Below are positions 25,541 to 51,047 of a stretch of DNA of 64,000 nt, piece after piece. Position 1 is the first letter of the stretch. Each line of letters starts with the position of its first letter. Origin of the DNA: Patescibacteria group bacterium (GTDB lineage Bacteria > Patescibacteriota > Microgenomatia > UBA12405); assembly GCA_013387215.1 (NCBI GenBank), contig WARW01000022.1, forward strand, positions 5,357 to 69,356. Direction: 5' to 3'. A model generated the notes under the pieces. The model had not been told where the DNA came from. It ran no database searches and saw only the letters and a program-made list of their open reading frames with translations. Position numbers and translations under genes: made by a program.

Positions 25541-25551
25541 AATTAATTATA

Positions 25552-26763: not shown

Positions 26764-26794
26764 TATTTGTATTAATGTTGATATATTATAGAGT

Positions 26795-28735: not shown

Positions 28736-28736
28736 T

Positions 28737-33111: not shown

Positions 33112-33938
33112 TATTTTTTATCCCAATCATTTAATAAATTGATTTGACGTTTTGTTTTTTCAAGTTCCCAATATTTGGTGTAAGTAATGGGAAAACGCAA
33201 ACTCGAATAAAAGGAGAAAACAAACCCAGGAAAGCCATCGTAAAATCCTTTATGCCTGAAATAAGTTGATAAAAACCAGTATAAAGGTTTGAATAAATAA
33301 TAATTCATAAAGTTAAAGAAACTTATTTTTGTTTTCTTTTGTTGAAGCTCTTGAGCTAGTAAAGTAGTATATCGATTGTGTCGTAATAGATAATGGGAAA
33401 AAGAAGTGTCAGCATAGTGTTCCAAATCATGTTTTAGCCAACCAACTGTGCCTTTAACTTCAGCTTGTTCGTGTACATCTTTGCATGGCAAGCGGCCGGT
33501 TCCATTTTTATAGAAACGAATCGTTGGATCAGGATACTGCCCACCTTTTTTTAGAAATGAACCGAGAAAATAATTTTTTCTTTTAATCCAAAACCCATTG
33601 TCTTTTATATCGATTGGAGATTTTTCTAAGATGGAAATTATTTCATTTTTCAATTCTTTTGTGACGATTTCATCGGCGTCAAGTTGAAGTATCCAATCAC
33701 TTTTACAGGCATCAATAGCCATATTTTTATTAATATGAAAAATCGGTTTATTAGTGGTTTTAATAATTTTTACTTTCTTATATTTAGAAGATAATTCAAT
33801 AGTTTTATCTTGAGAACTTCCATCGGCAATAACTACCTCATCCACCCAATCAATTACAGCATTGAGACATCTTTGAATATTATTTTCTTCGTTATAAGTA
33901 GCAATTGCAATTGAAATAGTAGCTTTTTTTACTGTCAT
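33111..33938 (-). CDS. GT2 glycosyltransferase
   Basis: ISIAIATYNEENNIQRCL...VVIADGSSQDKT...LDADE. It resembles 55398..56192 and 57104..58039. Confidence 0.8.
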   Translation of the reverse strand: MTVKKATISIAIATYNEENNIQRCLNAVIDWVDEVVIADGSSQDKTIELSSKYKKVKIIKTTNKPIFHINKNMAIDACKSDWILQLDADEIVTKELKNEIISILEKSPIDIKDNGFWIKRKNYFLGSFLKKGGQYPDPTIRFYKNGTGRLPCKDVHEQAEVKGTVGWLKHDLEHYADTSFSHYLLRHNRYTTLLAQELQQKKTKISFFNFMNYYLFKPLYWFLSTYFRHKGFYDGFPGFVFSFYSSLRFPITYTKYWELEKTKRQINLLNDWDKK

Positions 33939-35581
33939 TGTTTTATATAAATATTAAATGCTGGTTGACCGTTCGGAAAATTGATTGTTTTTATTGGACT
34001 TGCACTTACTTGTTCATCACTAGCTACAACTAATGAATTAGAAGATATATTGTTCCAATCAATTTTTTCAAAGTTATATTTATCATAATGCCTAACGGTC
34101 GAAAAACCAAATTGATCAGGAGTAGATAGCTTTATTTCTTTTTGAATAAGTTCAGGCGGGTATTTTGAAAAAAATAAGAAGAGAATATAAGGTTGATCGT
34201 ATTTGTCGGTTATATAGACTTGATTAAAATTTGATTTATTTTGCTCAATATAAGGAACTAGTTGATCGAATCCATATTGCCAAGCAAATGGATATCTTTT
34301 GGCGTAATGTAGAAAATAAGAATCCAAATAAAATGCAATATTATATATATAAAATATGACTAAAATAGGCAATAAAATTGTTTTTAGTTTATATGTTTTA
34401 ATTATTTCTAAAAATTGATAAATACCTAATGACACTAAAACAGATAATGGAATAACCATTGGTAGAGCTCTTAAAGCTGATGGTGCTTGAAAAGTTAATG
34501 ATGAGGCAAGCGGAGCAATTAAAAGCCAAGAAAGAAATAATTTGGTAAAGTTTTTATTTTTAATTAATCTACTGTTTAAAATTATGACTATTCCTAGTAA
34601 TAAGAATGGAAGTTCAAGAATGTACAGCTGCCCCATTTCGGGTACTTTTGATCGGGGAACTTCATCACCGTTTATAAATAAGAAATTAGGATTAAAGTGA
34701 GAAGTATATTTTTCTCCCCATGAAATTAAGTACAAAACTCTTTTGTTGTGGATTATGCGATTAATAAGTTTTACATTGGCATGCTGATTTATTAATTCGT
34801 TGGCACGATTAATTGGACCTTGATCAGCGGTTATACCTACTCCTCCAAAACGAGCAGCCCCTCCACTGTGAAGAAAAGAAGTTAAAACTGGTATTGCTAA
34901 AATAGCGCCTAAGATTATTGGTAAAACAACCTGTGGTAATTTTGATTTGATGAAATTAAATTGAAAAACAAAAAGACTTAATGCTAAAACTGGGGCTACA
35001 ATGCGGACTGAATGATAAATATAGAGTGATAATACAAAAAAACAAATAAAAAGGCTGAAGTTTAATAAAAACCTTTTTTCAATTGACTTAAAGAAAAAGT
35101 AGGTTCCAATAACTAAAAAGGAAAGTGCAGATGATGATTCCCACCCTCCCCGACTAAAGTGTATATGCCATGGAGAGAAAGCTAAGACGGCAGCAGATAT
35201 TAGTGCCAATTTATTATTTTTACTTAATAGCAAAACTAATTTATAAAGGAAATATATTGTTAAAATCGAAAGAATTAAATTAGGCAATCGGACTGCGAGT
35301 GGTGTTAATCCAAGTAATTTAACAAAAGGCAGTACAAGATAAAAATAACCACCTGGTTTAAAATCACCAAAAGATTTGAAATGAAGTGGCCATGATACGC
35401 CATGTTCATCTTTTCCTGTTTGTATAAGTGAATATACGTTGTAACCAATAGCAGCTTCATCTGGATTTAAAGCAGGAGTAGTTCCAATTTGAAAAAAACG
35501 GATAGAAATTGCAGCAATTAAAATTAATATTAAAAGTATGTTTTTATGGATTTTCGTAAGCATAGAAGGTTGAGATACCAT
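33935..35581 (-). CDS. GT-C glycosyltransferase, GT39/GT83 PMT/ArnT-like (PMT_2 family)
   Basis: It is polytopic. The first periplasmic loop carries TTPALNPDEAAIGYNVYSL...HFKSFGDFKPGGY, the DE motif of PMT/ArnT-type GT-C enzymes. The C-terminal domain shares the conserved GY.EA..Y......Y.I....G.PY..LFY..YPP pattern seen across the array. Confidence 0.75.
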   Translation of the reverse strand: MVSQPSMLTKIHKNILLILILIAAISIRFFQIGTTPALNPDEAAIGYNVYSLIQTGKDEHGVSWPLHFKSFGDFKPGGYFYLVLPFVKLLGLTPLAVRLPNLILSILTIYFLYKLVLLLSKNNKLALISAAVLAFSPWHIHFSRGGWESSSALSFLVIGTYFFFKSIEKRFLLNFSLFICFFVLSLYIYHSVRIVAPVLALSLFVFQFNFIKSKLPQVVLPIILGAILAIPVLTSFLHSGGAARFGGVGITADQGPINRANELINQHANVKLINRIIHNKRVLYLISWGEKYTSHFNPNFLFINGDEVPRSKVPEMGQLYILELPFLLLGIVIILNSRLIKNKNFTKLFLSWLLIAPLASSLTFQAPSALRALPMVIPLSVLVSLGIYQFLEIIKTYKLKTILLPILVIFYIYNIAFYLDSYFLHYAKRYPFAWQYGFDQLVPYIEQNKSNFNQVYITDKYDQPYILFLFFSKYPPELIQKEIKLSTPDQFGFSTVRHYDKYNFEKIDWNNISSNSLVVASDEQVSASPIKTINFPNGQPAFNIYIKQ

Positions 35582-37187
35582 TAATTGGACTTAAAGGAAT
35601 AAATTTTGAGAAATTTGGGGAAGTATTTAGATTTTGTCTTAGTATTTCATCATATGAAAAAATGCCCAAGGTGTGGGGAGTGTTTGCTACATATTGATAA
35701 TTAGTTGAACCAAATTTTATATTATCAATACTTTCAACTTTACCAGTATCCCCTGATGAATTTTCAGTTAGCTTAGCCTGTTTTTGATATTCTTGAGGAG
35801 GATATTCGGAGTAAAAAAGGTAGTAAATATATGGTTGTCCATAGAAATCTGTAAAAGCTATATTTTGAAATCTATCTTTATTTTTAATGACATAGTTTGC
35901 CGCTTCTTTATATCCAAATAAAACATCATTTGGTGACTTTTTGAGCATGTGATTTAAATATAAATCTGCGTAATAAGCAAAAGACAATAGATATATAAAA
36001 ATAATAAATGTATAGACAAATTTATTTTTAAATTTATTAAGAAAGAAAAAGATGCCAAGTGAAATAAAATAAACTAAAGGAATGGAAAATGACATCGATC
36101 TGACTGCTTGTATGGAATCACGAGTTAAGGATGCTGGAATTGGTGCTGCTAGTAACCAAAATAAAAAGAAATAATTAATAGGTTCTTTTTTGCTCATCGA
36201 AAGTGAACCAAAAATACCTAATACTAGAAAAATTAAACTTGGGTAAAGTAGTACGCCAATATATGGAGCAGAATTTCTTGGATCTTGCCAATCACCTTCG
36301 AAAATTAAAAATTTAGTAGAAAAATGATTGAAATATCGTAAAAGCGAATTTCTTAAAAAGAATTCTGGTTTACTATAGAATAAATCATAATCGAGTTGGT
36401 TGGTTTCATTAATTATCTCTTGGGTTTCGGTTTGATTTCTAGGATACGACAAAAGGCTTATGACGTTTAGTCGATTTGCATTACTATTAAAGAGTAAGCC
36501 ATAAGCAATAGGTATGGCTAAAAACCCTAGAGGTATGGCGAAATATAAAATTACTATTTTAAGATGTTTTGTAAATATATTTTTAAAATTAATTACAAAC
36601 AAAATAATTATCAATAAAAGACTAATCATTTTGCCGGCTTGATAGGTATATAGAGTTGAGGCAAAAACTAAAGAAGATAATGTTAAAAATATATTTTTCT
36701 TTTTGTTTATGTACTTAAAAAAGAACAATGCTGCTAAAACTAATTCAAAGGTTAAAATATTTGTTTCCCAAGCGGCTTTAGAAAAATGAATATTATACGG
36801 ATTAAATGTTAGTATTAATGCAGAAATTAAGGCAATTTTCTTTGATTTAGGACTAATTTCTTTTACAAGAAAGTAAAGAATTATTGGAGTTAATGATCCT
36901 AATAAGATAGACGGCAAGCGGACTGATAATGCACTTAAACCTAAAATTTTTATAAAAGGAATTGCTAAATAAACGTAAAGCCCAGGTTTGTAGTCGCCAA
37001 ATGATTTAAAGATTAAAGGTAAAAATTTTCCGTATTCATCTTTTGCGGTTTGTATGATTGAAAAGGCGTTGTATCCAAGAGATGCTTCGTCCCACAATAA
37101 AGTTGGATAATTATTGGCTTGATATATCCTGACAATAAAGGCAAGAATAAAAATAATTATTAAAAAGAATTTATTATTTTTGGCCAT
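35544..37187 (-). CDS. GT-C glycosyltransferase, GT39/PMT/ArnT-like (PMT_2), paralog
   Basis: NNYPTLLWDEASLGYNAFSI...IFKSFGDYKPGLY is the loop-1 DE motif. The C-terminus has FGYKEAANYVIKNKDRFQNIAFTDFYGQPYIYYLFYSEYPP. Confidence 0.75.
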   Translation of the reverse strand: MAKNNKFFLIIIFILAFIVRIYQANNYPTLLWDEASLGYNAFSIIQTAKDEYGKFLPLIFKSFGDYKPGLYVYLAIPFIKILGLSALSVRLPSILLGSLTPIILYFLVKEISPKSKKIALISALILTFNPYNIHFSKAAWETNILTFELVLAALFFFKYINKKKNIFLTLSSLVFASTLYTYQAGKMISLLLIIILFVINFKNIFTKHLKIVILYFAIPLGFLAIPIAYGLLFNSNANRLNVISLLSYPRNQTETQEIINETNQLDYDLFYSKPEFFLRNSLLRYFNHFSTKFLIFEGDWQDPRNSAPYIGVLLYPSLIFLVLGIFGSLSMSKKEPINYFFLFWLLAAPIPASLTRDSIQAVRSMSFSIPLVYFISLGIFFFLNKFKNKFVYTFIIFIYLLSFAYYADLYLNHMLKKSPNDVLFGYKEAANYVIKNKDRFQNIAFTDFYGQPYIYYLFYSEYPPQEYQKQAKLTENSSGDTGKVESIDNIKFGSTNYQYVANTPHTLGIFSYDEILRQNLNTSPNFSKFIPLSPINGISTFYAYENP

Positions 37188-38844
37188 ACAAATTTAAAAT
37201 GTCGAAAGCAGGTTTTTGATCTAAGAAATTGACAGTTTTAAGCATCTTAGTATTGCTTTGATTGTAATTGTTTGGAGATGTAATTAAAAGTATGTGTTGG
37301 CCAGCTTGAATATTTGCGATTGTGCTTTTAATTTCCCAATCGTTTACAAATCTAAATTTATCAAAAGCATCAACCCAATACCAGTCAGCATGAAAATCCC
37401 AGATCTTTTTTGGATCATTTTGATAGGAAGCTGGATTCCAAGGCCAATAGAATAAAACATATTCATGGGCTTCTCCATATTTTTTTGTAATAATGATCTG
37501 GTCGTATTCATTGTAATGATCTTTAGCATAGGAAATGGCTTCTTTATATCCATATTGCCAAGATTCAGAATACTTGGATGAATATTGAGTAAAATAATTA
37601 TTCATATAGTTGAAGGTTTGTATGCTTAGTGCCAAAAGTAGAAGTATAGAAAATATATATTTTGCTTTATTTTTCTTCAATATACTTATAAATAATACAA
37701 ATCCATAGGAAATAAATATTTGAGGCAGCGGGAGGATGGTCATGGCACGAATTATGGGAAAATCACCGGTAGTGATGACTGCTGGAGCAAGACCAAGAAC
37801 AAACCAACCAACAAGAAATAACGAAAGCTTGTTTTTACGAAAAATATCAATAATAAGAAAAATAATACCAGTATAGAAAAATGGTAAAAGAATTGGATAT
37901 AAAACTCCAGTATTGGGTATATTAAATTGATAATTTTGAGTGCTATTAAAAAATAGTATTTTAGGATTAAGGAAACCTAAATAATTTTTTGATACTTCAG
38001 TAACGAAATAAACTGGCTTGTTATATATTATTTTTCCTATTAATGGGCTACCTTTAAAATGATTTCGATTTTCATTAATTACATTTACAGAGGCTGGGTT
38101 TATTATAAAGACCCACCTACTCCTGGCTTTGGAACTGTTTCCAAACAGGTTTAATATTTGAGGTAATAAAAGTATAAAAAATATAATAAGTGATGTTGAA
38201 AAATAGATTTTATATTTTTTGAAAAATGCAAAAAATTGTTTGTAAAAGATGAAAGCAAATAATACTATGATTAGAGGTCCAGCAATTCTGGTGTTATGGT
38301 AGCCATAGGTTGATAATGCGAGACTAAATAATCCAGGAAGTAATAATTTAGGTTTATTTTTTAAAGCATAAAGAATTAATAAGATTCCCAGGGCAAAGAA
38401 AAATTGAGCAATTGTAGATTGGAAAACAGCTCTTGATGGGAACAAGGTCCAAGGTGAGACTGCGGTTAGAAGCATTAAAAGTAGAGCTGGTTTATTTTTC
38501 TTGAAAATTAGTTTTCCAAAATAAAAAGCAATAATTACTAAACCGAATCCAAGGATGGCTGATGGTAGTCTTATTGATGTTTCGTTTAACCCAAAAAAGT
38601 AGACGAAAGGTATGGTTAAATACATATTTAAAGTCGTAGGATAGTCACCATAAGCTCGGAAATTAAAAATGGGCCAACTGGTTCCCCATTGGTCTTTACC
38701 GGTATTTAAAAGGCTATAGGCATTGTACCCATGACTAATTTCGTCCCAGTTAAGGCTGACAGGATATTTATTAAGCTGCCAAAATCTTAAAAATATTGCG
38801 AAAAGAACAATAAATATAAATAATATTTTTTCAAGTTTATTCAT
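37174..38844 (-). CDS. GT-C glycosyltransferase, GT39/PMT/ArnT-like (PMT_2), paralog
   Basis: NKYPVSLNWDEISHGYNAYSL is the loop-1 motif. The C-terminus has WQYGYKEAISYAKDHYNEYDQIIITKKYGEAHEYVLFY. Confidence 0.75.
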   Translation of the reverse strand: MNKLEKILFIFIVLFAIFLRFWQLNKYPVSLNWDEISHGYNAYSLLNTGKDQWGTSWPIFNFRAYGDYPTTLNMYLTIPFVYFFGLNETSIRLPSAILGFGLVIIAFYFGKLIFKKNKPALLLMLLTAVSPWTLFPSRAVFQSTIAQFFFALGILLILYALKNKPKLLLPGLFSLALSTYGYHNTRIAGPLIIVLFAFIFYKQFFAFFKKYKIYFSTSLIIFFILLLPQILNLFGNSSKARSRWVFIINPASVNVINENRNHFKGSPLIGKIIYNKPVYFVTEVSKNYLGFLNPKILFFNSTQNYQFNIPNTGVLYPILLPFFYTGIIFLIIDIFRKNKLSLFLVGWFVLGLAPAVITTGDFPIIRAMTILPLPQIFISYGFVLFISILKKNKAKYIFSILLLLALSIQTFNYMNNYFTQYSSKYSESWQYGYKEAISYAKDHYNEYDQIIITKKYGEAHEYVLFYWPWNPASYQNDPKKIWDFHADWYWVDAFDKFRFVNDWEIKSTIANIQAGQHILLITSPNNYNQSNTKMLKTVNFLDQKPAFDILNLYGQK

Positions 38845-40510
38845 GAGGTTTTTTACTTGGTCTTGAGAGTATTATAGCCAATATTATGCTTAAAAGACTG
38901 ATAATATTTGCAGTTTTTCTTATAGGAGTGTCGGAAAATGATAGATTAATAGTATGTTTGCCTTGAGTTAGGTCAAATTGAATTAACCCAAGATCAGGCG
39001 TAGTTCTATAATTAGTTTTTACATTATCAATAGATAGAGTCCAATTGGGGAAATATACAACTGGCATAGTAATGGTTGAACTTTTGGCAGCAGTGATAAT
39101 AGCTGAAACATGATTACTTTGTTTTTTATAATCTAAAATAGTTATATTAGAATTATTTGAAGCTGTTGGCTTATCGGGCGCGTAAACATCTGGAACTTTA
39201 TTTCCTGTTTTTGGCCAATAATCTTTTAAACCCGCACCGCTTTGTTGTATTAGAGCCTGGCCAGATAATTTTTGCTGGTCAGTAAGATTAGGAAACCAAA
39301 TATCTTCTTTAAAATAACTAATATTTAAAATAATTGTTATTAGGCAAATGATGATTGTTAAATATGGAATAAATTTTTTATTCTTAAAAAGATAAACTGC
39401 TGATCCTCCAATAAAGGATAGTGAAAAAATTACACTAGCCAAGAATCTCCATGGGAATTGATAGTAAGCCATAAAAGGCAGTGCTTTCCAGATAAAAGTT
39501 GATTTTGAGTGGGTTAGAAATGTTGAAAAAATAAACACAGAAAAGAAAAACACAAAAATAACGGGGTTTATTTTTTTGTTTTTAAAGCGAGTAAAAACGA
39601 AAAATATTAACAATAATATGCCTAAGATCCAGTGGATGTGTCCAATCGAAAAAGACATGTCGTCTATTGGACCCCAAAGTGAAGCACCGTATCCCCAAAA
39701 CCTAGATATAAATAGTTCTGAAAGAGTGGCGAAATGAATAACATAATAAAAATAACCTTGAGTCATAGTATCAACAGTGACCAGATTTTTTTCAAATATT
39801 ACAGGAAGAGTAAAAAAAGCACTTATTCCAATACTAAGTAGTGTTGGAATAGATATGTTAATTATATTTTTTATATTTAATTTATTATTTTGCCAAAGCA
39901 AAATTAATGTATAAACTAACAAAATTGGGGCAAAAGTCAGACTGGTTAAGTTGTGGCTTAATAAAAGTGAAGCTAATAGTATTATGAATAACAACTTATG
40001 TTTATTTTTTGTGATTACTTGAGTTAATGCCCAAAATAAAAATGGAGTAATATTTAGAGCCAGTGATTCAGCAATTGCTCCTCTGACATAACTATCAACT
40101 GACTGATATGGAGCTAAAAGAAATAGAGTGGCGGAAATTATGCCTCCAAGTTTGCCCCAATAATGTTTTGCAAAAAAATACATGCCAAATATCCCTATGA
40201 TATGGCATAAAATAAAAACAATTTTTATACTATCAATATAGCTAAAGCTAATTAAATGAAAAACTTCAGCAATTGCGTAAGGAAGCGGTGAATAGTAATT
40301 ATAAAGAGGATAACCATAACCAAAACCTGCATCGGGGATATAACGACACGGAATTTGGAAATCATGTATACATTTATCAAATTGATTCAACCGAAATACT
40401 TGAATGTCGTCTTGCATGGATGGATATCCAGGCCTTAAAAGTCTGTAAAAAGATAATATGGAAAGGAGTATTAATACAATAGGAATGATTATTTTTGTAA
40501 TATATTTCAT
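38837..40510 (-). CDS. Polytopic GT-C-like membrane protein, second family (paralog of 61133..62869; YfhO/PTPS-related-like architecture with C-terminal beta domain and terminal TM)
   Basis: Its N-terminal motif is RPGYPSMQDDIQVFRLNQFDKC...QIPCRYIPDAGFGYGYPLYNYYSPLPY, shared with 61133..62869. It ends ...TPIRKTANIISLLSIILAIIL (a C-terminal TM), like its paralog. Confidence 0.5.
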   Translation of the reverse strand: MKYITKIIIPIVLILLSILSFYRLLRPGYPSMQDDIQVFRLNQFDKCIHDFQIPCRYIPDAGFGYGYPLYNYYSPLPYAIAEVFHLISFSYIDSIKIVFILCHIIGIFGMYFFAKHYWGKLGGIISATLFLLAPYQSVDSYVRGAIAESLALNITPFLFWALTQVITKNKHKLLFIILLASLLLSHNLTSLTFAPILLVYTLILLWQNNKLNIKNIINISIPTLLSIGISAFFTLPVIFEKNLVTVDTMTQGYFYYVIHFATLSELFISRFWGYGASLWGPIDDMSFSIGHIHWILGILLLIFFVFTRFKNKKINPVIFVFFFSVFIFSTFLTHSKSTFIWKALPFMAYYQFPWRFLASVIFSLSFIGGSAVYLFKNKKFIPYLTIIICLITIILNISYFKEDIWFPNLTDQQKLSGQALIQQSGAGLKDYWPKTGNKVPDVYAPDKPTASNNSNITILDYKKQSNHVSAIITAAKSSTITMPVVYFPNWTLSIDNVKTNYRTTPDLGLIQFDLTQGKHTINLSFSDTPIRKTANIISLLSIILAIILSRPSKKPHE

Positions 40511-42258: not shown

Positions 42259-42314
42259 TTATGGATAATGTATTTTATACTATTAGAGTCACTTAATTAT
42301 TATTTAAGTGTTTA
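42259..42314. promoter_or_regulatory. Divergent intergenic region (putative bidirectional promoter) inside the GT-C array
   Basis: This is a 56-bp AT-rich gap between the minus-strand GT-C run (33935..42258) and the plus-strand genes 42315..45330. Confidence 0.3.
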
Positions 42315-43622: not shown

Positions 43623-43623
43623 T

Positions 43624-45330
43624 ATGAAAAAAAGATGGTATGGACTATTTATTATTTCAATAATTTTAATAGGATTTTTTCTTAGAGTTTATAAACTCGA
43701 CAAAACTCCCCCATCGGTTAATTTTGATGAAGCAGCGTTGGGATATAATGCATTTTCGATTTTAAAAACAGGAAAAGATGAATATGGTAACTTTTTACCT
43801 CTTTCGCTTAGATCTTTTAATGACTATAAGCCTGCATTGTATGCCTATTTATCTATTCCCTTTATTGCTGCAATGGGATTAAATGACGTTTCTATTAGGA
43901 TGGTATCTGCAATTGCTGGAACCGTATCTTTAATATTTTTATATTTCTTTTTAAAGTCTTTTATAAAAAACAAGTATTTACGAATATTTATTTTTATAAT
44001 TTTGTCTTTAGAGCCTTGGCGTTTACATTTTTCTAGAGTTGCATTTGAAGCTAATCTTTCTGCAAGTTTTTTTATTGCAGGAGCTTGGTATTTTTATAAA
44101 TATAGAAACTGGAAAATACAAAAAGCCAAAATATTGAAGTTTTTGTTGGTTTCAGTTTTATTTGCATTATCGGCTTATAGTTATCATTCAGCTAGAGTGG
44201 CGGTACCATTGTTTACAGTTTTTTGGGCGTTGGATCCTTTGCAAATTATTTTTGAAAAGAAACTATTTACATATATTAAATGGGTGTTTAGTAAAAGATT
44301 GTTTGCTTTATATCCTTTACTTTTATTTATACTTTTAATTTTACCGGTGTTCTTGACAACTCAAAGTACTTTGGTTTTAACTCGTTTTAAGCAAGAAAAT
44401 ATTTTTGATCGCTATTTTCCTTATGCTCCAAAAGAATTAATTGCAACAGATAATGCATGGCTCAACTGGCAGAGTAATCCAGTTTATTATTTTATGGGGC
44501 TAATTTCTGGACATGTATTAAGCTATTTTTCACCTATAAATACCGTTCAAAGAATTTTTCATTGGATAAGAGGATCAGTTCAGTATATTCCAGGATTTAG
44601 TATGTTTGGCTGGTTAGAAAGTATAATTTTTATTTTTGGTTTGGTTTATTTAATAAAAAATATAAAAAAATTAGAGAAATATCGATTTGTTTTATATTGG
44701 ATAATAGCTGGAGCTGCGCCAGCTGCAGTTACTTGGAATTGGTTTCATCCATTAAGATCTTTAAATATTTTTCCTGCTTTAGAAATTGTTATTGCAATTG
44801 GTTTTTTGAATTTATACAAATTTGCAAAAAATAATTTAACAAAGTTAACTAGATTGGCGCTATTTGGAGGCTTAAGTGTTGTTTTTGCACTGACAATAAT
44901 TTTTACTGTATGCAATGAATATAATTATAGTATTTCGGAAAATAACGGCGAGTATCAACCTGGAGGGTTCAAAGAAGGTATGCAAATATTAAAATCTATG
45001 CAAGATAATTATGATCAAGTTATTATAGATAGTCCACATGCTCAAAGTTATATTTTTCTTTTGTTTTATCAATCATTTCCCCCTGAAATAGTACAAAGAT
45101 ATGCGGGTATTAGACCCAAACCCGGTATTGAGGGCAATTTGGATTTTAATTTTGATAAATTTGTTTTTAAAAAGTTTGATTGGCCAGTTCAAAAAAATGA
45201 GCATAAAACCCTTATTTGGACTTCATCTGAAGTAAAAGAAGATGAAATAAAAAATACGCCAGGAGCAAAAATAATTTGGGTAAATAATGCAGTAATGGAA
45301 AAAGCAACGGCAATTATTTCTAAAGACTAA
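43624..45330 (+). CDS. GT-C glycosyltransferase, GT39/PMT/ArnT-like (PMT_2), paralog
   Basis: LDKTPPSVNFDEAALGYNAFSI...SLRSFNDYKPALY is the loop-1 motif. The C-terminus has FKEGMQILKSMQDNYDQVIIDSPHAQSYIFLLFYQSFPP. I chose the start at 43624 (MKKRWYG), preceded by GGAG about 13 nt upstream; the ORF track begins at 43603. Confidence 0.75.
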   Translation: MKKRWYGLFIISIILIGFFLRVYKLDKTPPSVNFDEAALGYNAFSILKTGKDEYGNFLPLSLRSFNDYKPALYAYLSIPFIAAMGLNDVSIRMVSAIAGTVSLIFLYFFLKSFIKNKYLRIFIFIILSLEPWRLHFSRVAFEANLSASFFIAGAWYFYKYRNWKIQKAKILKFLLVSVLFALSAYSYHSARVAVPLFTVFWALDPLQIIFEKKLFTYIKWVFSKRLFALYPLLLFILLILPVFLTTQSTLVLTRFKQENIFDRYFPYAPKELIATDNAWLNWQSNPVYYFMGLISGHVLSYFSPINTVQRIFHWIRGSVQYIPGFSMFGWLESIIFIFGLVYLIKNIKKLEKYRFVLYWIIAGAAPAAVTWNWFHPLRSLNIFPALEIVIAIGFLNLYKFAKNNLTKLTRLALFGGLSVVFALTIIFTVCNEYNYSISENNGEYQPGGFKEGMQILKSMQDNYDQVIIDSPHAQSYIFLLFYQSFPPEIVQRYAGIRPKPGIEGNLDFNFDKFVFKKFDWPVQKNEHKTLIWTSSEVKEDEIKNTPGAKIIWVNNAVMEKATAIISKD

Positions 45331-45928
45331 TTAAAAGAAGAATATTGAGAATTATCAGAATAATTATAAATAAAGAAACATGAACTAAATTTCTTTGATG
45401 AAAAAGATTGATTTGTTCCATTATTGTATTCTTAAATGAGCTTTTAATACTTCCTGATGTATATGTAGTCTTATAATCAATAGATTTATCTTTTAAGTTT
45501 CCATACACAAAAAGCGTGTCTGTTTTGGGATTGTCTGAAGTCAATTTTATAAAAAATTTATCACCAGATTTTGATGGAACAAATGGAAATTTAAAAGAAA
45601 TCCAGCTTGGATCGGCAATACTTACTCCTGATGTGGTTAATGATCTGATTATATTTTTGTTGTTATCAAGGAGTTCAATGTTGACATGGCTGGTATTTTG
45701 CAAAGCAGGATTTTTAAGAAGAACCGAAACCGTTTGCAAGTTACTTTTATCGGTTATTATTTCTTGGGTATAACTATTTTTAGTATCAAGTGAAAGAGTA
45801 TTTTGAAAACTTGTTTGAGAAATTCCAGGTCGTTCTTTAATAAATAATGAAGGAAGAATGACCAAAATAAAAATCAAGAATAGAGTTTCAGATACAATTA
45901 ATATTAATATTTTATTTTTCTTTTGCAT
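45320..45928 (-). CDS. Small bitopic membrane protein (N- and C-terminal TM helices flanking a beta-rich about 140-aa domain), unknown function
   Basis: The 202-aa ORF has hydrophobic helices at both ends and an S/T/N/K-rich central domain. It overlaps neighbouring genes by 11 nt and 17 nt. Confidence 0.5.
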   Translation of the reverse strand: MQKKNKILILIVSETLFLIFILVILPSLFIKERPGISQTSFQNTLSLDTKNSYTQEIITDKSNLQTVSVLLKNPALQNTSHVNIELLDNNKNIIRSLTTSGVSIADPSWISFKFPFVPSKSGDKFFIKLTSDNPKTDTLFVYGNLKDKSIDYKTTYTSGSIKSSFKNTIMEQINLFHQRNLVHVSLFIIILIILNILLLISL

Positions 45929-47102
45929 ATAAAATTATTCCTAATATTCCAGATAAAAATAAAATACTATGAATGTTGTTTTGAATGTTTACAGGATCAA
46001 AGTGTGTTTTTAATTTAATTATTTGAAACGGTGAAGTAACTGATAAAAAATTTGGGTCAACTGGTATTAAATGACCCCAAAAAAGATAACTGTCGTTGAA
46101 CAATAAGATGTATACAAAAACTAATACAAAAAATAATGGCAAGAAAATATAGAATTTAGTTTGATTATTAAAAGTTACCAGTACAAATGGTAAAAACCAA
46201 AGTATCCATTGTGGGTGGAAATTAACCATACCAATAAAAATTAAGAAAATAAAGAAAATTGATTTTTCAAATTTAAGTTTAGATTTAGAAATAATAAAAT
46301 GTATGAATATTAAAATATAGAAAACAGGAAAAATAGGAATATTTTGAATTCTAAATTCAAGTAACTTTTGGGTTAATCCAGATCCTAAAAAGGCATCATA
46401 AAAACTTTTTTGAAATATGAATGGAATTAAAGAAATAACTAGCGGTGCAAGTGAAATTAAACCATTTTTAATAAATGATAAAACTTTTTCTTTTTTGTAA
46501 AACATAAGAAACGGTAGAAAAAGAATAGGGTAAATTTTTAGTGCAATTGCAATTCCAATGGAAAGATAAGCCCAATTGGTTTTCTCTTTTTTAAGTAGAT
46601 AAAATGAAAGAAAGGTTAAGAAAGTGGGAAGAATGTCAAAGTTTCCAAGTACATAAATTAAATATAGGGAAATAGGATTGAAATACCAAAGCATTAATAT
46701 TTTTTTGCTTTTGTATTGTTTATATAAAAACCATCCTAGACTGAGATCTAGCAAAAGATATGGAATTTTTAATAAAGTTATATAAAAAGGAATGTTAGGA
46801 TCGCTATTTTGATTTTCTCCCCAATTATTTATCCAAAGATTAAAATCTTTCCCTAAAAATGGTTTGGTTAAAGTTTGAGTTACGCCAAAAGTATAATAAG
46901 TCAGCGGCAAGTAGTTGAAAGTATCTTGATATGGTAAAGAACTTTTATTTTTAGCTACGTAATCATAGATGTTAAATATTCCTTTAGAAAAGAACTGAAA
47001 ATGAAAGTTTTGTGTTTTCATGTCAGGATGATAAAAGAATGGCATTATCAGGAACCTGACGATTATGGCGAGGATTAGTATACATTTTTCTGATTTAGAC
47101 AC
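45912..47102 (-). CDS. Polytopic membrane protein, possible GT-C-type (DUF2029/GT87-like) glycosyltransferase
   Basis: The 396-aa ORF has about 10 predicted TM helices and an N-terminal FYHPDMKTQNFHFQ loop. The family assignment is tentative. Confidence 0.35.
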   Translation of the reverse strand: MSKSEKCILILAIIVRFLIMPFFYHPDMKTQNFHFQFFSKGIFNIYDYVAKNKSSLPYQDTFNYLPLTYYTFGVTQTLTKPFLGKDFNLWINNWGENQNSDPNIPFYITLLKIPYLLLDLSLGWFLYKQYKSKKILMLWYFNPISLYLIYVLGNFDILPTFLTFLSFYLLKKEKTNWAYLSIGIAIALKIYPILFLPFLMFYKKEKVLSFIKNGLISLAPLVISLIPFIFQKSFYDAFLGSGLTQKLLEFRIQNIPIFPVFYILIFIHFIISKSKLKFEKSIFFIFLIFIGMVNFHPQWILWFLPFVLVTFNNQTKFYIFLPLFFVLVFVYILLFNDSYLFWGHLIPVDPNFLSVTSPFQIIKLKTHFDPVNIQNNIHSILFLSGILGIILYAKEK

Positions 47103-47137
47103 TAATTGATTTTACAGCAAATGGTAGAATAAGTTTA
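47103..47137. promoter_or_regulatory. Divergent intergenic region (putative promoters)
   Basis: This is a 35-bp gap between divergent genes 45912..47102 (-) and 47138..48787 (+). Confidence 0.25.
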
Positions 47138-48787
47138 ATGTTGCGTAAAAACCTTATTTTGTTTTTAATCTTATTGTTGGCTATTTTTTTAAGATTTGTT
47201 CGGTTAGATTATTTGGAACTTTTTGGTGATGAAATAGATGCTGGGTATCAATCATATTCTTTAGCTGAAACAGGAAGTGATTACAAGGGAGATTTCCTTC
47301 CTTTGTATGCTCATAGCTTTTCTGAGTGGCGGGCTCCCTTGATGATGTACTCAATGATACCTTTTATTAAAATATTTGGTCTTAATGAATGGGGTGTAAG
47401 AAGCTATTCTGCTTTTTTTGGCATTTTAAGTATCTTGGGGTTTTATTTTTTACTAAGGAAAGTTGGTGTTAAAAAATCAGTAGCATTATTAACTAGTTTT
47501 ATGTTGACGATTGTTCCTTGGCACATTCAATATAGTCGATCAGCTTTTGAATTAACCTTATTATCTAGTTTAATTATTTGGGGTTTATATTTTTTAATTG
47601 ATTATTTAGAAAATAAAGGAAGCTGGAAAATACCAGTTAGCGCACTTTTATTATCATTGAGTTTCTATACTTATAATACTGCCAACGTTTATGTCCCGTT
47701 ATTAATTTTGGTGGCAGGTGTTGGTTATTTTATTAAATCAAAAAAAGTAGTATTTAAACCATTTTTAGTTTTATTGATGTTAATGTTTGTTTTGAGCCTT
47801 CCAGTGTTAATCCAAATTTTTACTGGACATGGAGCAGACAGATTCGAAAAGTTTTCTGTTTTTGGTGATAAAGATGCTTTAACAAAAATTAATAGTTATA
47901 GAAACGAAAGCAACAATTCTTTGTTGTCAAAAATATATTACAACAAACCAGTGTTTGCAGTTAAAAGCATTGCTTTTAATTATGCGAATGCTTTTAGTTC
48001 TGATTTTTTGTTTGGCAGAGGCGATGTTACATTTAGACATTCTTTGCATAATGTGGGAAATTTGTTTTGGATACAATTAGTTTTAATTGTTGTTGGATTA
48101 GGTTTATTTTTCAAAAAAAATAAAAAAACATTTGGCGATTATCTAATGATTGGATTTTTGTTGGTTTCCCCTATTCCTTCAAGTCTTACAGTGGATGGAG
48201 CCTATCACGCATCAAGGTTATTTTTAATGGTTTTTCCTTTAGCATATTTTTCTGCCGAAGGATTGGCTTTTATTTTTAGATTCAAAAAAATGTTTGGATT
48301 AATAGCTGTTTTGATTTTGGCCTTTGAGTTTTCATATTTTCAATATTATTATTGGAATTCTTATCGATCTGAATCATGGAGATGGTGGCATTTTGGTTAT
48401 AAACAAATTATGTTGAGTGAAGCAAATTATGACAGTCAATACAAAAAAGTTTTAATAGATAACACCTATGAACCATCTTTAATTAGATATTTGTTTTGGA
48501 ATAAAATAAGCCCAAAGAAAGTACTGGGTTTTGATGATAAAACAGTTTCTAAAAGTGTCGATGGTTATGATGGTTTTTGTTTTAATGGTAAAGCCTGTTT
48601 TGTTGATTTTAACGGCAGATTGTCTGGTGAAAAAATGGATAAAGATAGCCTTTATATTATTAATCAAGAAAAAAATGTTGGTGGAGATTGGGATTGGAGT
48701 AAAAATACACCTGATGGAATTAAAGTTTTAAGTGTAGTCAGAAACCCAAATAATGAACCATTATTTTATCTTGTTTGCAAGAAATAA
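47138..48787 (+). CDS. GT-C glycosyltransferase, GT39/PMT/ArnT-like (PMT_2), paralog
   Basis: VRLDYLELFGDEIDAGYQSYSL...YAHSFSEWRAPLM is the loop-1 motif. The C-terminus has WHFGYKQIMLSEANYDSQYKKVLIDNTYEPSLIRYLFW. Confidence 0.75.
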   Translation: MLRKNLILFLILLLAIFLRFVRLDYLELFGDEIDAGYQSYSLAETGSDYKGDFLPLYAHSFSEWRAPLMMYSMIPFIKIFGLNEWGVRSYSAFFGILSILGFYFLLRKVGVKKSVALLTSFMLTIVPWHIQYSRSAFELTLLSSLIIWGLYFLIDYLENKGSWKIPVSALLLSLSFYTYNTANVYVPLLILVAGVGYFIKSKKVVFKPFLVLLMLMFVLSLPVLIQIFTGHGADRFEKFSVFGDKDALTKINSYRNESNNSLLSKIYYNKPVFAVKSIAFNYANAFSSDFLFGRGDVTFRHSLHNVGNLFWIQLVLIVVGLGLFFKKNKKTFGDYLMIGFLLVSPIPSSLTVDGAYHASRLFLMVFPLAYFSAEGLAFIFRFKKMFGLIAVLILAFEFSYFQYYYWNSYRSESWRWWHFGYKQIMLSEANYDSQYKKVLIDNTYEPSLIRYLFWNKISPKKVLGFDDKTVSKSVDGYDGFCFNGKACFVDFNGRLSGEKMDKDSLYIINQEKNVGGDWDWSKNTPDGIKVLSVVRNPNNEPLFYLVCKK

Positions 48788-50283
48788 TCAGGAAGGTTTA
48801 GATTTAAATTAGTCATAGATCGGATTTCTTGTCTTCTAGACAATAATATAGTTCCTGGTGAAGAAGGATTATCGTCATTATAAGTCTTTATAGTTTGAGG
48901 AAAATAGGTAGCTTCAAAGAATCTTCCTGACTCTCCATTAGCATCATGGATACTTTGTGAGATTAAAGGCATTAGATTTCTTTTGGCTGCTTCTTTGGCA
49001 AGAATTTCATAAGCTGGATAGTATTTAAATGTTCCAACAATGTTTTCAGTAAATTTTGGATAGGTGTACCAATAATATTTTACAAAATCAAAATAATTTA
49101 TGGCTATAAGAACAAATATCGAAAGAGTGGACAATTTTCCAAGTAATTTTTTATATTGCCAAAGTGTAATAATGCCGAGTGTGGATAACAAAGAAAACGA
49201 TGGGATTATAGCCATAATACGACTAGCGCGATGTACTGAATTAACAAACCCGTAAAATAAAGTTGAAGTAAAAAATATAATTAATATCAGTTTCCAAAAA
49301 TTATTTTTTTTGACAGATTGATAACAGCCGATGACAAAAAATGGCAATGTGGCAAGCAAAAACATTCCATGACGTTGAGTAGAATGATAAAGCGTGTCGT
49401 CACCTTTGATAAATAAAAAGGTTGGGTCGAAAGTTGAAAGATAGGGATAGAAAAATTCATAAACACTACTTAAATGAACACTCATGTTATCGAAAACTGC
49501 TCCTGGATATTTTTGCTGAAGAATAGGAATAATAGCAAAAAATGGAAAAATAGATATAGAAAAAGCAAAAGCATCATAAAAAAATTTTTTAAAATTGAAC
49601 TTAGGTAAAAAGTTTAGTGATAACAAATATACAATTGAAGCTATTCCGCAAATTGGTACAGTTGCTCTCATGCCTTTATAAGTGTAAAAACTGATTCCTA
49701 GAGAAATAGCGGAATATATTAAATGCTTTCTTTTATTATTTTGAGTAAACAATAAGAGACCAATGAGCCAAATTATTACGAATGGAATGGGCATGATATT
49801 ATCAAGTCCCATGTGAGATTGGATCATAATTAAAGGTATAGTTAAAAATACAAAGAACGATAAAAACGATGCTTTAATGCTGCTAAATAAGCGATAAGAA
49901 AGAAAAAACAATAAAATAGAGCTGGTGATAGTTATCAAAACGCTGCTTAAACGAAGATTAAAAATTGATGCGCCAAAAAATTTAAAAAATACAGCTAAAT
50001 AATATTGCGTAACTGGCTGGCGCCAATCTTTACCGTCTATTGAAAGAACAAAAAAAGGCAAAAATCGGCCATTCTGATCATGACCGTCTTTGGCTAATAA
50101 GGTTGCATTATATCCAAAAGCAGCTTCATCAACAGTAAGACCGGTTGGTACCTGCATTACTCGATATGAAAAAAAGATAGTAATAAATATGGATAATGTT
50201 AAAAGTGATAGAACCAAAACCAAAATTCTTTTATTTATTTTTTGAAAATGTTTTTTAGCTTTTGCCATTTTTGACCAGACCAT
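48766..50283 (-). CDS. GT-C glycosyltransferase, GT39/PMT/ArnT-like (PMT_2), paralog
   Basis: MQVPTGLTVDEAAFGYNATLL is the loop-1 motif and the protein is polytopic. It overlaps the convergent gene 47138..48787 by 22 nt. An alternative start at 50268 (MAKAKK) is possible. Confidence 0.7.
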   Translation of the reverse strand: MVWSKMAKAKKHFQKINKRILVLVLSLLTLSIFITIFFSYRVMQVPTGLTVDEAAFGYNATLLAKDGHDQNGRFLPFFVLSIDGKDWRQPVTQYYLAVFFKFFGASIFNLRLSSVLITITSSILLFFLSYRLFSSIKASFLSFFVFLTIPLIMIQSHMGLDNIMPIPFVIIWLIGLLLFTQNNKRKHLIYSAISLGISFYTYKGMRATVPICGIASIVYLLSLNFLPKFNFKKFFYDAFAFSISIFPFFAIIPILQQKYPGAVFDNMSVHLSSVYEFFYPYLSTFDPTFLFIKGDDTLYHSTQRHGMFLLATLPFFVIGCYQSVKKNNFWKLILIIFFTSTLFYGFVNSVHRASRIMAIIPSFSLLSTLGIITLWQYKKLLGKLSTLSIFVLIAINYFDFVKYYWYTYPKFTENIVGTFKYYPAYEILAKEAAKRNLMPLISQSIHDANGESGRFFEATYFPQTIKTYNDDNPSSPGTILLSRRQEIRSMTNLNLNLPDYFLQTR

Positions 50284-51047
50284 AAAATGGAGGTTAAAAT
50301 GTAATGATTTAGGTAGCCATGATATTTAATACTACTTGGGATAAGACGCCGCCACTGATTGGATGCTGAAGCGAGTTTGGAACCGCTTGCACCATGCCGA
50401 TGAATTACTTTACAGTCTGGAAAATAGACAATATTTTTGTGTTGTTGGTGAATGCTGCGGCAAAGATCCATGTCTTCAAAATAGAAAAAATATTTTTCAT
50501 TCCAACCGCCAATTTTTTCAAAAAAGTCTTTTTTAATCAATATTGCCCCACCTGAAATTGACCAAACATTTGCCAATTTTAAGGGTGAATATTTTGAATA
50601 TGATGGAATGCTTAACCAATATTCCTTAATAGCATTAAAAATTGTTTGGGGAGGAAAAACAGATGCTTGAGTTGTTAAGTCAATATTTAGAAATTTTGGA
50701 CCGATAGCTCCAATTTCAGGATTCTTTTTTATATATTCAAACATTAATTCAAGACTTGAGTCGATAAATTCCATGTCAGAATTTAAAAATAAAAGATATT
50801 CCCCTTCTGCTTTTTTAACACCAATGTTGTTTGCTTTTGAAAAACCAAGATTAGCTTTATTTTCGACAATTTTAAGATGGCCGATTTTATTTAGTCTGGC
50901 GACAGTGTCATCTTCAGAACCATTATCAACAACAATTATTTCATAATTTATATGTTCTATATATTTTTTAATTGTTTTTACACATTTAATGGTAATATCG
51001 GCAGTATTCCAAGTTACTATGATAATACTTAAATCGAATTTGGTCAT
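50235..51047 (-). CDS. GT2 family glycosyltransferase
   Basis: LSIIIVTWNTADITIKCV...YEIIVVDNGSEDDTV...FYFEDMDLC are GT2 motifs. Confidence 0.8.
   Translation of the reverse strand: MTKFDLSIIIVTWNTADITIKCVKTIKKYIEHINYEIIVVDNGSEDDTVARLNKIGHLKIVENKANLGFSKANNIGVKKAEGEYLLFLNSDMEFIDSSLELMFEYIKKNPEIGAIGPKFLNIDLTTQASVFPPQTIFNAIKEYWLSIPSYSKYSPLKLANVWSISGGAILIKKDFFEKIGGWNEKYFFYFEDMDLCRSIHQQHKNIVYFPDCKVIHRHGASGSKLASASNQWRRLIPSSIKYHGYLNHYILTSILWSGQKWQKLKNIFKK

Follow-up and report, generated by a model that had tools for sequence, protein, structure and literature searches.

Seven diverged GT-C glycosyltransferase genes lie side by side within a 64-kb sugar-polymer gene island, and they are most plausibly (at a probability of roughly 0.6) ancient, functionally separated enzymes of the PMT_2/ArnT/PMT type that would place lipid-linked sugar on different glycoconjugate positions. 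The host is a Candidatus Shapirobacteria-like CPR (Microgenomates) bacterium, likely with a genome of about 1 Mb (contigs of 0.3–1.1 Mb), which we take to be monoderm-like and to lack lipid A. The window, by which we mean the whole 64,000-nucleotide stretch analysed, has 51 open reading frames of at least 150 amino acids (aa), and their recognisable Pfam domains are nearly all those of glycan enzymes or transporters. It encodes at least 13 GT-C-like proteins and about 15 cytoplasmic GT2 and GT4 enzymes.

All seven full-length genes of the preliminary description are present as open reading frames. Three of them form a trio on the minus strand, namely C (37174..38844; 556 aa), which comes first, B (35544..37187; 547 aa), which is the best-conserved member, and A (33935..35581; 548 aa). 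The accessory members are D (40507..42258, minus strand; 583 aa), the first gene of a long minus-strand operon, E (43603..45330, plus strand), F (47138..48787, plus strand; 549 aa) and the most divergent copy, G (48766..50283, minus strand; 505 aa), the C-terminal domain of which is short and atypical. Only the start of E differs from that given before: the frame opens at a TTG at 43603 (575 aa), and the first in-frame ATG, at 43624 (568 aa), is probably the true start. By BLASTP all seven match one another far beyond chance, with E values from 1e-9 to 1e-86 (1.8e-64 for C to A) and 22–37% identity. Pfam scores for the family are weak (23–53 bits), and six copies clear a curated cut-off: A (29.4 bits), B, D (39.7 bits), F (36.1 bits) and G (39.6 bits, with a weak ArnT NCBIfam match as well) pass that of PMT_2, and B, D and E (23.0 bits) pass that of PMT, set at 22.7 bits. 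C, at 23.0 bits, falls under the PMT_2 cut-off of 26.1. The Pfam search and the fold matches of a model of one paralog agree, and they support the original assignment of the seven as PMT_2/ArnT/PMT-like GT-C enzymes. A PDB search with family sequence profiles gave no match even at an E value of 10, and the transfer of mechanism therefore relies on fold, topology and the Pfam scores.

The acidic pair D-E in the first loop is invariant across the seven (D41-E42 in A), and D-E-x4-Y is the only pattern that is fully so. The longer motif first ascribed to every copy, D-E-(A/I)-x-x-G-Y-N-(A/V)-(F/Y)-S-L, is strictly present in two or three; similarly, one proline of the 'YPP' in the proposed shared C-terminal signature is invariant, the remainder varies and G largely lacks it. 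The positive-inside pattern of alternating short, KR-rich loops predicts 11 transmembrane (TM) helices and an internal N terminus, with both the D-E loop and the family's C-terminal domain of 130–145 aa outside, in agreement with the helices of the modelled paralog. A cytoplasmic D-E loop had been named as grounds for abandoning the GT-C assignment; because topology and model helices both predict an extracytoplasmic one, that objection falls away. In our reading of the model, the invariant residues D33, E34, Y39, D50, R90, Y182, R363 and Y410 (B numbering) lie mostly on the outer face; the paralogs would be cytoplasmic-membrane proteins whose active sites point outwards.

A truncated paralog missed in the preliminary description, and the ninth relative counted here, lies directly upstream of E (42315..43622, plus strand; 435 aa). 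It aligns to B residues 144–536 (hhalign probability 95%) and is devoid of TM1, the D-E loop and the catalytic acidic residues. Its 435-aa ortholog is kept in locus L083 (dN/dS of 0.13), and all eight loci with a loop-less homolog have it directly upstream of an E ortholog, which in the eighth is truncated by the locus edge. The protein is a probable non-catalytic partner of E, judging by its sequence and this constant pairing.

The paralogs could instead be protein O-mannosyltransferases acting on secreted, S-layer or pilus proteins, in which case the co-transcribed trio, or E and its loop-less neighbour, would form hetero-oligomers like yeast Pmt1–Pmt2. We consider this unlikely, because the Pfam search returned neither a MIR nor a PMT_4TMC domain for the array, and because the modelled paralog scores nearly as well against ArnT, ALG12 and STT3 as against Pmt4. 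Nor does the window contain an obvious substrate protein; its recognisable genes encode polysaccharide-type enzymes, a Wzx-type flippase, an ABC-2 exporter and an acyltransferase. Moreover, characterised PMT_2 GT-Cs of monoderm bacteria mostly modify glycopolymers (PMC8035078).

Orthologs of the array proteins share 60–81% identity, compared with 22–37% between paralogs. The C-terminal domain is where the paralogs differ most from one another (20% identity versus 30% for the N-terminal part); among the orthologs of each group, it and the remaining protein are equally conserved. Measured against a 78%-identical relative, dN/dS is 0.05–0.17 across the copies (0.11 for A), without any rise in the C-terminal domains; the orthologs are under purifying selection. 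With a highest paralog identity of 37% there are no recent duplicates, and sequence divergence on this scale points to ancient paralogs and ancient subfunctionalisation. The pattern of a C-terminal domain diverged among paralogs and conserved among orthologs makes many different acceptor specificities the best reading of the array.

The gene order tells a similar story across 80 related genomes. Nearly all of them have one copy of each C-B-A gene in the same order, with A orthologs directly after B in 74 loci and C orthologs in 70, and the order of trio, GT2 and GT4 genes is kept down to about 37–45% identity. Orthologs of D occur in about 20 loci and those of E in 7, in every case on the opposite strand from C-B-A; the best relatives of F elsewhere are at most 40% identical, and copies related to G occur in 3 loci only. 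Copy number does vary, from three to seven family members per locus, yet this variation is confined to the upstream accessory part, where some loci pair E with D and others have F alongside extra paralogs; the trio is constant.

Such variability could reflect an arms race over phage or host recognition, with diversifying selection on an exposed structure and rapid turnover of copies. In addition to the differing accessory sets, paralog clades missing from this window are found in 35 loci, and cytoplasmic glycosyltransferase genes adjacent to the array differ among close relatives. However, down to about 37% identity the trio persists as single copies in conserved order, the whole array of the closest relative (78% identity) shows the same gene order, and there are no simple-sequence tracts or invertible repeats of the kind used in phase variation. 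Because selection is purifying and the C-terminal domains are conserved equally with the rest, diversifying selection, one of the two explanations first offered, is not supported. Conservation as a single-copy-like unit had itself been named as evidence against that description, and it is essentially what the C-B-A core displays. We therefore judge an arms race very improbable for the array, which shows no sign of being fast-evolving and variable, and largely refuted for the core.

Five further GT-C-like genes had been overlooked. One (14574..16442, plus strand; 622 aa) fuses a GT-C-like membrane domain, aligned to B residues 86–403 (hhalign 91%) and with 'SDDY' after TM1, to C-terminal TPR repeats. 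Two are paralogous to each other at 36% identity: a PTPS_related/YfhO-like gene between C and D (38837..40510, minus strand; 557 aa; PF10131, 38.9 bits; 'QDD' after TM1; hhalign probability of 59% against the paralog family) and a second PTPS_related-like gene (61133..62869, minus strand; 578 aa; 'HDD' after TM1). The fourth is GT87/PIG-M-like (45912..47102, minus strand; 396 aa; PF09594, 38.2 bits; PF05007, 28.9 bits; 'HPD' after TM1) and co-occurs with a 202-aa bitopic protein (45320..45928, minus strand) that has a TM helix at each end and no match in the Pfam search; homologs of the latter adjoin GT87 genes in L003, L004, L006, L037, L050 and L083. The fifth, a YfhO-family GT-C of 759 aa (51044–53323; PF09586, 55.3 bits), flanks the array together with a 270-aa GT2 (PF00535, 101 bits) at 50235..53323 on the minus strand, and the same neighbours are found in L001, L010 and L021. 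The gene at the window edge (62896..64000, minus strand), previously counted as an eighth family copy, comprises the C-terminal 367 aa only. It has no Pfam match and no BLASTP match to the seven paralogs at 1e-5, and aligns to B residues 138–401 (hhalign 84%). Its full-length homologs (500–515 aa) score up to 54.8 bits for PMT_2 and carry an 'F-x-DEAIYIRW' loop, so it is a PMT_2 GT-C, though of another subfamily; as its N-terminal ~140 residues lie beyond the window, the D-E motif cannot have been seen there.

The minus-strand genes from 42258 to 27719 (D down to a GT2 with two TM helices) overlap or abut. Directly after A in all full-length loci comes a 275-aa GT2 (33111..33938; PF00535, 74 bits; dN/dS of 0.03), with GmaR and SunS-type GT2s as its closest PDB and NCBIfam matches, and after it, again in all full-length loci, a 356-aa GT4 (32041..33111; PF00534, 74.2 bits). 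The next gene (31248..32132) encodes a DPMS/GtrB/ArnC-like GT2 with no TM helix that matches the Dol-P-Man synthase 5mlz over the whole catalytic domain (E value of 1.2e-13), GtrB (2e-6) and ArnC (4e-6), and has weak NCBIfam matches to ArnC, AglJ, PpgS and PgfS. It is kept in the cassette at 50–89% identity; relatives in L001 and L083 are 267–268 aa long, and its own true start probably gives about 268 aa. The rest of the Shapirobacteria-conserved operon (27719..31245), delimited by Pfam, TM helices and synteny, encodes a GT2 with about four C-terminal TM helices (30214–31245), a B12-type radical SAM protein (28737–30224) and the two-helix GT2 (27719–28735). Although 11 window proteins have a GT2 domain and three of these (24536, 27719 and 30214) end in TM helices, the earlier count of at least seven DPM1/GtrB-like donor enzymes was overstated: the TM-bearing GT2s resemble TarS, TarP or minimal cellulose-synthase-like enzymes, the model of 27719–28735 has hyaluronan synthase, TarP and PcManGT, not GtrB, as its nearest matches, and 31248–32132 is the one convincing candidate for a polyprenyl-phosphate-sugar synthase. 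No partner membrane protein was identified for it. The sole flippase candidate in the window is a Wzx-type (MOP) protein (59706..61160, minus strand; PF13440, 151 bits; PF01943, 84.7 bits); the 64 kb hold no GtrA-type gene, and unassigned intergenic gaps of at most 81 nt leave no room for one.

Given this gene content, one lipid-sugar donor serving several acceptor-specific GT-C enzymes is the best reading. The Dol-P-Man-synthase-like GT2 would charge polyprenyl phosphate with sugar in the cytoplasm, the lipid-linked sugar would be flipped, for which the Wzx-type protein and a flippase from another part of the genome are both possible, and each GT-C paralog would attach it at its own site on a glycoconjugate of the cell envelope, with, we infer, one linkage per paralog. 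The acceptor may be a lipid-linked or wall-linked backbone, made by the island's many GT2 and GT4 enzymes together with its sugar-modifying ones. The trio with the 275-aa GT2 and the 356-aa GT4 would form the conserved core, and D, F, G, the pair of E and its probable loop-less partner, and the GT87-like, PTPS-related and YfhO enzymes a lineage-variable decoration layer; the likely role of this conserved cassette is to make or decorate a surface glycan on the outer side of the membrane. STT3 and PglB, of the same GT-C fold class, use diphosphate-linked oligosaccharides, so another type of donor is possible by analogy. Alternatively, with a single polyprenyl-phosphate sugar as donor, the trio and accessory GT-Cs could build an entire lipoglycan or wall polysaccharide outside the membrane, in the way that LM/LAM and arabinogalactan are made by the mycobacterial PimE, MptA/B/C, Emb and Aft enzymes. 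The ratio of one DPMS-like synthase to at least 13 GT-C-like genes (including a GT87-like one from the MptA/MptB/PimE family), the conserved gene order, and the presence of Emb, AftA, AftB, AftD and PimE among the fold matches of the modelled paralog all fit such polymerisation. We nevertheless think it distinctly unlikely, because the roughly 15 cytoplasmic GT2 and GT4 enzymes, the flippase and the ABC-2 exporter point to a conventional backbone assembled in the cytoplasm.

Among known systems, the array differs from the GT39 protein O-mannosyltransferases (yeast Pmt1/2/4 and actinobacterial Pmt) in its lack of reported MIR or PMT_4TMC domains and of sequence-level matches to solved PMTs, and in its C-terminal domain, which PMTs lack. 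In the RgtA/B/C/D and RgtE set of Rhizobium, several ArnT-like paralogs use one dodecaprenyl-phosphate-GalA donor to modify different LPS positions. The best NCBIfam ArnT (GT83) score of the array is 29.5 bits against a cut-off of 567 bits, and the host, unlike those of ArnT and its Rgt relatives, is presumably monoderm-like and without lipid A. The mycobacterial envelope GT-Cs (PimE, MptA/B/C, EmbA/B/C, AftA-D and Pmt) are fed by Ppm1 and DPA, and resemble the array in that many GT-Cs draw on one or two polyprenyl-phosphate donors, in the GT87-like member and in the fold matches; their genes, however, are dispersed and span several CAZy families, whereas here most are paralogs of one subfamily within one operon-like cassette, and the genome is likely about 1 Mb in size. 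In the multi-component transmembrane glycosylation systems of monoderms (CsbB/GtcA/YfhO, GtlA/GtlB, GacI-J/GacK/GacL, GtsABC and CsdAB/CD/EF), a GT-A makes a polyprenyl-phosphate sugar that a polytopic GT-C, often of Pfam PMT_2 (GacL, GtsC and CsdD/F) or YfhO, transfers extracellularly to a wall polymer, and variants with a soluble GT-A or a Wzx-type flippase have been described (PMC8035078). Unlike these, the window lacks a GtrA-type gene, its family is too diverged for sequence matches to solved structures, and, instead of one GT-A to one GT-C, it pairs seven to nine PMT_2-type and five other GT-C-like genes with one synthase candidate; like them, it combines PMT_2 and YfhO GT-Cs with a DPMS-like GT2 and a Wzx-type protein.

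The window is gene-dense, with a G+C content of about 30%, 51 non-nested open reading frames (ORFs) of at least 150 amino acids (aa) and a longest intergenic gap of at most 81 nt. Within it lie seven PMT_2/ArnT-like GT-C paralogs, here called A (33935–35581, − strand), B (35544–37187, −), C (37174–38844, −), D (40507–42258, −), E (43603–45330, +), F (47138–48787, +) and G (48766–50283, −). The gene positions in the preliminary description coincide exactly with these ORFs, with the sole exception of the start of E: mechanical calling opens the gene with a TTG (43603), and the originally described 43624, its first in-frame ATG, is probably where it truly begins. All-against-all BLASTP links A–G mutually (E values from 1e-9 to 1e-86), and their alignment, at 22–37% identity, contains 21 invariant columns, among them a D-E pair after the first transmembrane (TM) helix that is invariant in all seven paralogs and in 27 aligned sequences. 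Membership in the PMT_2 group was borne out by an HMM search, in which six of the seven reached the curated Pfam cut-off for PMT_2 (PF13231; 29.4, 37.5, 39.7, 36.1 and 39.6 bits against 26.1) or PMT (PF02366; 53.2, 27.8 and 23.0 bits against 22.7). C falls under the PMT_2 cut-off (23.0 against 26.1 bits), yet is a clear paralog (BLASTP to A, E 1.8e-64). The long loop-1 motif first ascribed to every copy keeps its D-E pair throughout and is otherwise a consensus, its G-Y-N being replaced by S-Y-Q in D and G-Y-Q in F; the proposed C-terminal signature is likewise a consensus rather than invariant, and is mostly absent from G. Existing automatic annotation labels single genes ‘glycosyltransferase family 39’ or ‘phospholipid carrier-dependent glycosyltransferase’. 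No GT-C or GT2 protein received an equivalog-level NCBIfam assignment; the ArnT equivalog NF009784 (cut-off 567 bits) matched G only, at 29.5 bits, and none of the other four paralogs scanned.

PDB searches with the paralog and with the ortholog profiles gave no match even at an E value of 10, so a comparison of folds was needed. B was modelled with AlphaFold2 from an alignment of 27 sequences (pLDDT 86, pTM 0.88), and in Foldseek the model retrieved GT-C enzymes exclusively: STT3, AglB, PglB, ArnT, ALG9, Pmt4, Emb and Aft. Because these alignments span the membrane part only (338–404 residues), no counterpart was detected for the C-terminal alpha/beta domain of 130–145 aa. Loops poor in K/R take turns with short loops rich in them, a pattern that fits 11 TM helices with the N terminus inside, and the positive-inside pattern places the 58-aa D-E loop, a TM7–TM8 loop of about 87 aa and the C-terminal domain outside; the helices of the B model agree with this topology. 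The paralogs are thus predicted, with B as the modelled member, to be polytopic membrane proteins of the GT-C_A fold. The predicted topology puts most of the invariant residues at the outer face, and the invariant R90 and R363 (B numbering) sit at the outer membrane boundary, where we infer that phosphate-binding residues would be expected. With the D-E loop predicted outside and a GT-C fold, the glycosyltransferase assignment in the preliminary description holds up.

Homologs of A and B with 60–81% identity were found, the named ones in Candidatus Shapirobacteria, Woesebacteria and ‘Patescibacteria group’ metagenome-assembled genomes (MAGs). We compared 80 loci from species-representative genomes, retrieved with an ortholog alignment as the query, and 4 from metagenomes; the seven-paralog alignment is too diverged for deriving search patterns. 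Every full-length locus holds three to seven family members, recognized by the seven-paralog profile, within 10 kb on either side of the B ortholog. The order C-B-A on a single strand recurs, by best-hit assignment, in nearly all loci down to about 37–40% identity, and A is followed by orthologs of its neighbours, a 275-aa GT2 and a 356-aa GT4, in 33 of 33 loci with full flanks (an extra ORF is inserted in one or two). In closer relatives the series continues with a DPMS-like GT2, a 343-aa TM-anchored GT2, a radical-SAM enzyme and a 338-aa GT2. Upstream of C the content is variable, comprising either D, E and a paralog lacking the catalytic loop, or F preceded by a GT87-like gene. This part also holds paralog clades missing from the window, one of them in 35 loci; the clades come from single-linkage clustering of 336 family members and are a rough count, as distant orthologs cause A and B to merge. 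In the closest relative (78% identity), gene order matches that of the window over the whole array, and cassette order is kept across genomes labelled Shapirobacteria, Woesebacteria and other Microgenomates. Copy-number variation, with totals of three to seven family members per locus, is accordingly present in the accessory part and does not extend to the core trio C-B-A, which keeps its order; on these comparisons, gene-content turnover of the array is confined to its accessory part.

Many cassette-bearing records (L004, L006, L009, L011, L044, L065 and others) bear the title ‘uncultured Gammaproteobacteria’, ‘Candidatus Methanoperedens’ or ‘Clostridia bacterium’. Such non-Microgenomates titles are likely to be placeholder names or to mark mis-binned contigs of public MAGs. 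Downstream of the conserved operon (24536–27718), the cytoplasmic glycosyltransferase genes differ between the window and the related loci L001 and L083, with a methyltransferase, a 436-aa GT4 and a 334-aa GT2 in the window at the site of two GT4 genes in L083. As these genes differ in close relatives, gene turnover is not limited to GT-C genes.

The density of the array had initially been read as a sign of many specificities or of diversifying selection. Within the A, B, C and E ortholog groups the C-terminal domain matches the remainder of the protein in conservation (54–58% identity), with somewhat lower values in D and F (45% and 32%); between paralogs it is the most diverged part, sharing 20% identity where the N-terminal part shares 30%. 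Values of dN/dS (Nei–Gojobori, against the 78%-identical relative) are 0.05–0.17 for all copies, and those of the C-terminal domains, 0.07–0.13, fall within that range; because dS is saturated (1.2–3.9 or undefined), these ratios are rough upper-bound indicators and not site-level estimates. A homopolymer scan of the window yielded a single T9 tract, which lies beyond the array, and no tract within the array itself, and a repeat search found no invertible-repeat structure in the array, where DNA repeats include paralogous segments encoding the D-E loop, plus other short matches. The rough dN/dS values, C-terminal domains included, and the lack of phase-variation-type repeats in these scans argue against diversifying selection. 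Judged from its sequences, the array shows a pattern of ancient duplication, then specialization and purifying selection, and so illustrates that close packing of paralogs is not in itself a mark of an arms race. A promoter and terminator scan was uninformative, as its counts equalled those of shuffled sequence.

The array contains a further paralog that the preliminary description missed. This 435-aa protein (42315–43622, +) aligns to B residues 144–536 with 95% probability and has neither TM1 nor the acidic loop. It is not a pseudogene, given a 435-aa ortholog in the closest relative and a dN/dS of about 0.13, which indicates purifying selection. Wherever a loop-less homolog occurs (eight loci), it lies directly upstream of the E ortholog, which in the eighth locus is cut by the locus edge, and the protein may be a non-catalytic partner subunit of E. 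The gene at the window edge (62896–63999), described as an eighth copy, has no Pfam match and no BLASTP match to A–G. In a profile–sequence comparison its residues 1–227 align onto B residues 138–401 with 84% probability; with the alignment starting at B 138, the first 140 or so residues of the protein, and with them any D-E loop, lie beyond the window edge, and the D-E motif attributed to this copy falls outside the window. Its full-length homologs, of 500–515 aa, score up to 54.8 bits against PMT_2 and carry an ‘F-x-DEAIYIRW’ loop, which makes the gene a PMT_2 GT-C, as proposed, of a subfamily other than that of A–G.

Five further genes are GT-C-like: one with C-terminal TPR repeats (14574–16442, +; hhalign probability 91%), two of the PTPS_related/YfhO-like kind (38837–40510 and 61133–62869), one of the YfhO family (51044–53323) and one GT87/PIG-M-like (45912–47102). 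All five have an acidic residue pair or ‘GD’/‘PD’ right after TM1. The first begins with a charged, soluble stretch of about 85 aa ahead of its first TM helix. Two more large polytopic proteins (3481–5358, +, and 58057–59727, −; 625 and 556 aa, with 8–11 predicted TM helices) match nothing in Pfam or NCBIfam. In hhalign comparisons with the PMT_2 family they reach probabilities of 56% and 3%, respectively, and they may be enzymes of the polymerase or ligase type or novel GT-C-like ones.

On the donor side, 11 proteins in the window have a GT2 domain, 3 of them with C-terminal TM helices. The TM-anchored proteins had been put forward as GtrB/DPM1-like synthases, a reading that we reject; their best PDB matches are TarS, TarP, GalT1 and chondroitin synthase. 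The model of one of the three, 27719–28735 (pLDDT 87.8), is nearest to hyaluronan synthase, WrtF, TarP and the minimal cellulose-synthase-like PcManGT, with GtrB, DPMS and ArnC ranking 18th to 27th. In place of several matching donor enzymes, the window offers one convincing candidate polyprenyl-phosphate glycosyltransferase, as judged by sequence comparison. This GT2 (31248–32132) matches Dol-P-Man synthase 5mlz over the whole catalytic domain (E 1.2e-13), followed by GtrB and ArnC. It lies in the conserved operon with the GT-Cs, is among the best-conserved cassette genes, has no TM helix and shows weak NCBIfam matches to ArnC, AglJ, PpgS and PgfS, far under the equivalog cut-offs. No GtrA-type flippase gene fits in the window, since no unassigned intergenic gap exceeds 81 nt. 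A Wzx-type MOP protein is encoded at 59706–61160 and may serve a backbone repeat unit instead of a lipid-linked sugar.

The surrounding island has several other features. Four paralogous radical-SAM enzymes, 25–31% identical (16439–17923, +; 17903–19483, −; 19529–20977, +; 28737–30224, −), include three with a B12-binding domain above the Pfam cut-off, and the ortholog of the fourth has a weak B12-binding match. Their genes adjoin those for a ThDP-dependent acetolactate-synthase-like enzyme, a split transketolase pair and a DegT aminotransferase (accompanying coordinates 20993–22720, +; 362–1572, −; 23397–24533, +), a set that suggests a route to unusual sugars of the C-methylated or branched-chain kind. 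Methyltransferase, GT4 and GT2 domains are fused in a 958-aa protein (6055–8931, −) encoded close to an ABC-2 exporter pair and an Acyl_transf_3 O-acyltransferase (accompanying coordinates 10905–12463, −, and 12447–13529, −), in what looks like an ABC-transporter-dependent polysaccharide pathway beside the Wzx-type one. The island also encodes a CofD/YvcK-family protein (13560–14552, +; PF01933, 138.6 bits). Across 12001–50000, GC skew of the + strand is persistently positive (0.05–0.29) despite interleaved genes on both strands, and may be a replication-strand signal.

In the mechanism that we propose, a GT-A enzyme, for which the DPMS-like GT2 at 31248–32132 in the same operon is the candidate, would make a polyprenyl-phosphate sugar, the sugar would be flipped across the membrane and the GT-C enzymes would transfer it, on the outer side, to a polymer of the envelope. 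One donor serving several position-specific GT-Cs is familiar from RgtA–D and RgtE of Rhizobium and from the PPM- and DPA-dependent enzymes of mycobacteria. From the polysaccharide-type gene content of the island, the putative acceptor is an extracytoplasmic glycopolymer. As for O-glycosylation of proteins, the window ORFs include no candidate substrate protein; Pfam, at E values up to 0.01, reported only N-terminal PMT_2/PMT matches in the paralogs and no MIR or PMT_4TMC domain. We regard a protein acceptor as a real alternative of low probability, and polymerization taking place wholly outside the cytoplasm as a somewhat smaller one.

The boldest reading that we consider, to which we give a probability of roughly 0.2, is that the conserved C-B-A trio and its GT2, GT4 and DPMS-like partners form a Microgenomates-specific extracytoplasmic assembly line, perhaps a hetero-oligomeric GT-C complex in which loop-less paralogs such as 42315–43622 are non-catalytic subunits. 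It would use one polyprenyl-phosphate sugar to build a lineage-defining envelope glycopolymer, which the variable accessory GT-Cs would tune so that these ultra-small episymbionts could attach to hosts or avoid phages. Tiny genomes are typical of CPR/Patescibacteria, and the contigs bearing these genes are 0.3–1.1 Mb; at least 64 kb of such a genome is here given to envelope glycan synthesis, with at least 13 GT-C-like membrane glycosyltransferases. Host attachment and recognition by phages are both presumed to act through the cell surface in these bacteria. The enzymology is as one would expect. What stands out is how extensive and how conserved the set is for an ultra-small genome, and this opens a testable way into the surface biology of CPR bacteria. 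The conserved-order cassette is a target for envelope glycomics and for structural work on possible GT-C complexes, including a naturally loop-less paralog, and could be used as a lineage marker.

In the searchable literature we found no description of the conserved cassette, its core/accessory structure or the loop-less partner, and in full-text searches no paper connected these enzymes to Shapirobacteria or Patescibacteria. Glycans go unmentioned in a 2024 perspective on the biology of Patescibacteria, and the nearest remark concerns eight genes annotated as Dol-P-Man transferases in Peregrinibacteria (PMC4736985). The closest comparison is with the multi-component transmembrane glycosylation systems reviewed in PMC8035078, which lists the PMT_2-type GT-Cs GacL, GtsC, CsdD/F and YkcB, soluble GT-A variants working with a separate membrane protein, and Wzx-type flippases; its PMT_2 GT-Cs, soluble GT-As and Wzx flippases are compatible with the window. 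Unlike those systems, the window has one synthase candidate for many GT-Cs, a core trio fixed throughout one CPR lineage together with a variable accessory set, and a conserved paralog lacking the catalytic loop that is paired with one enzyme.
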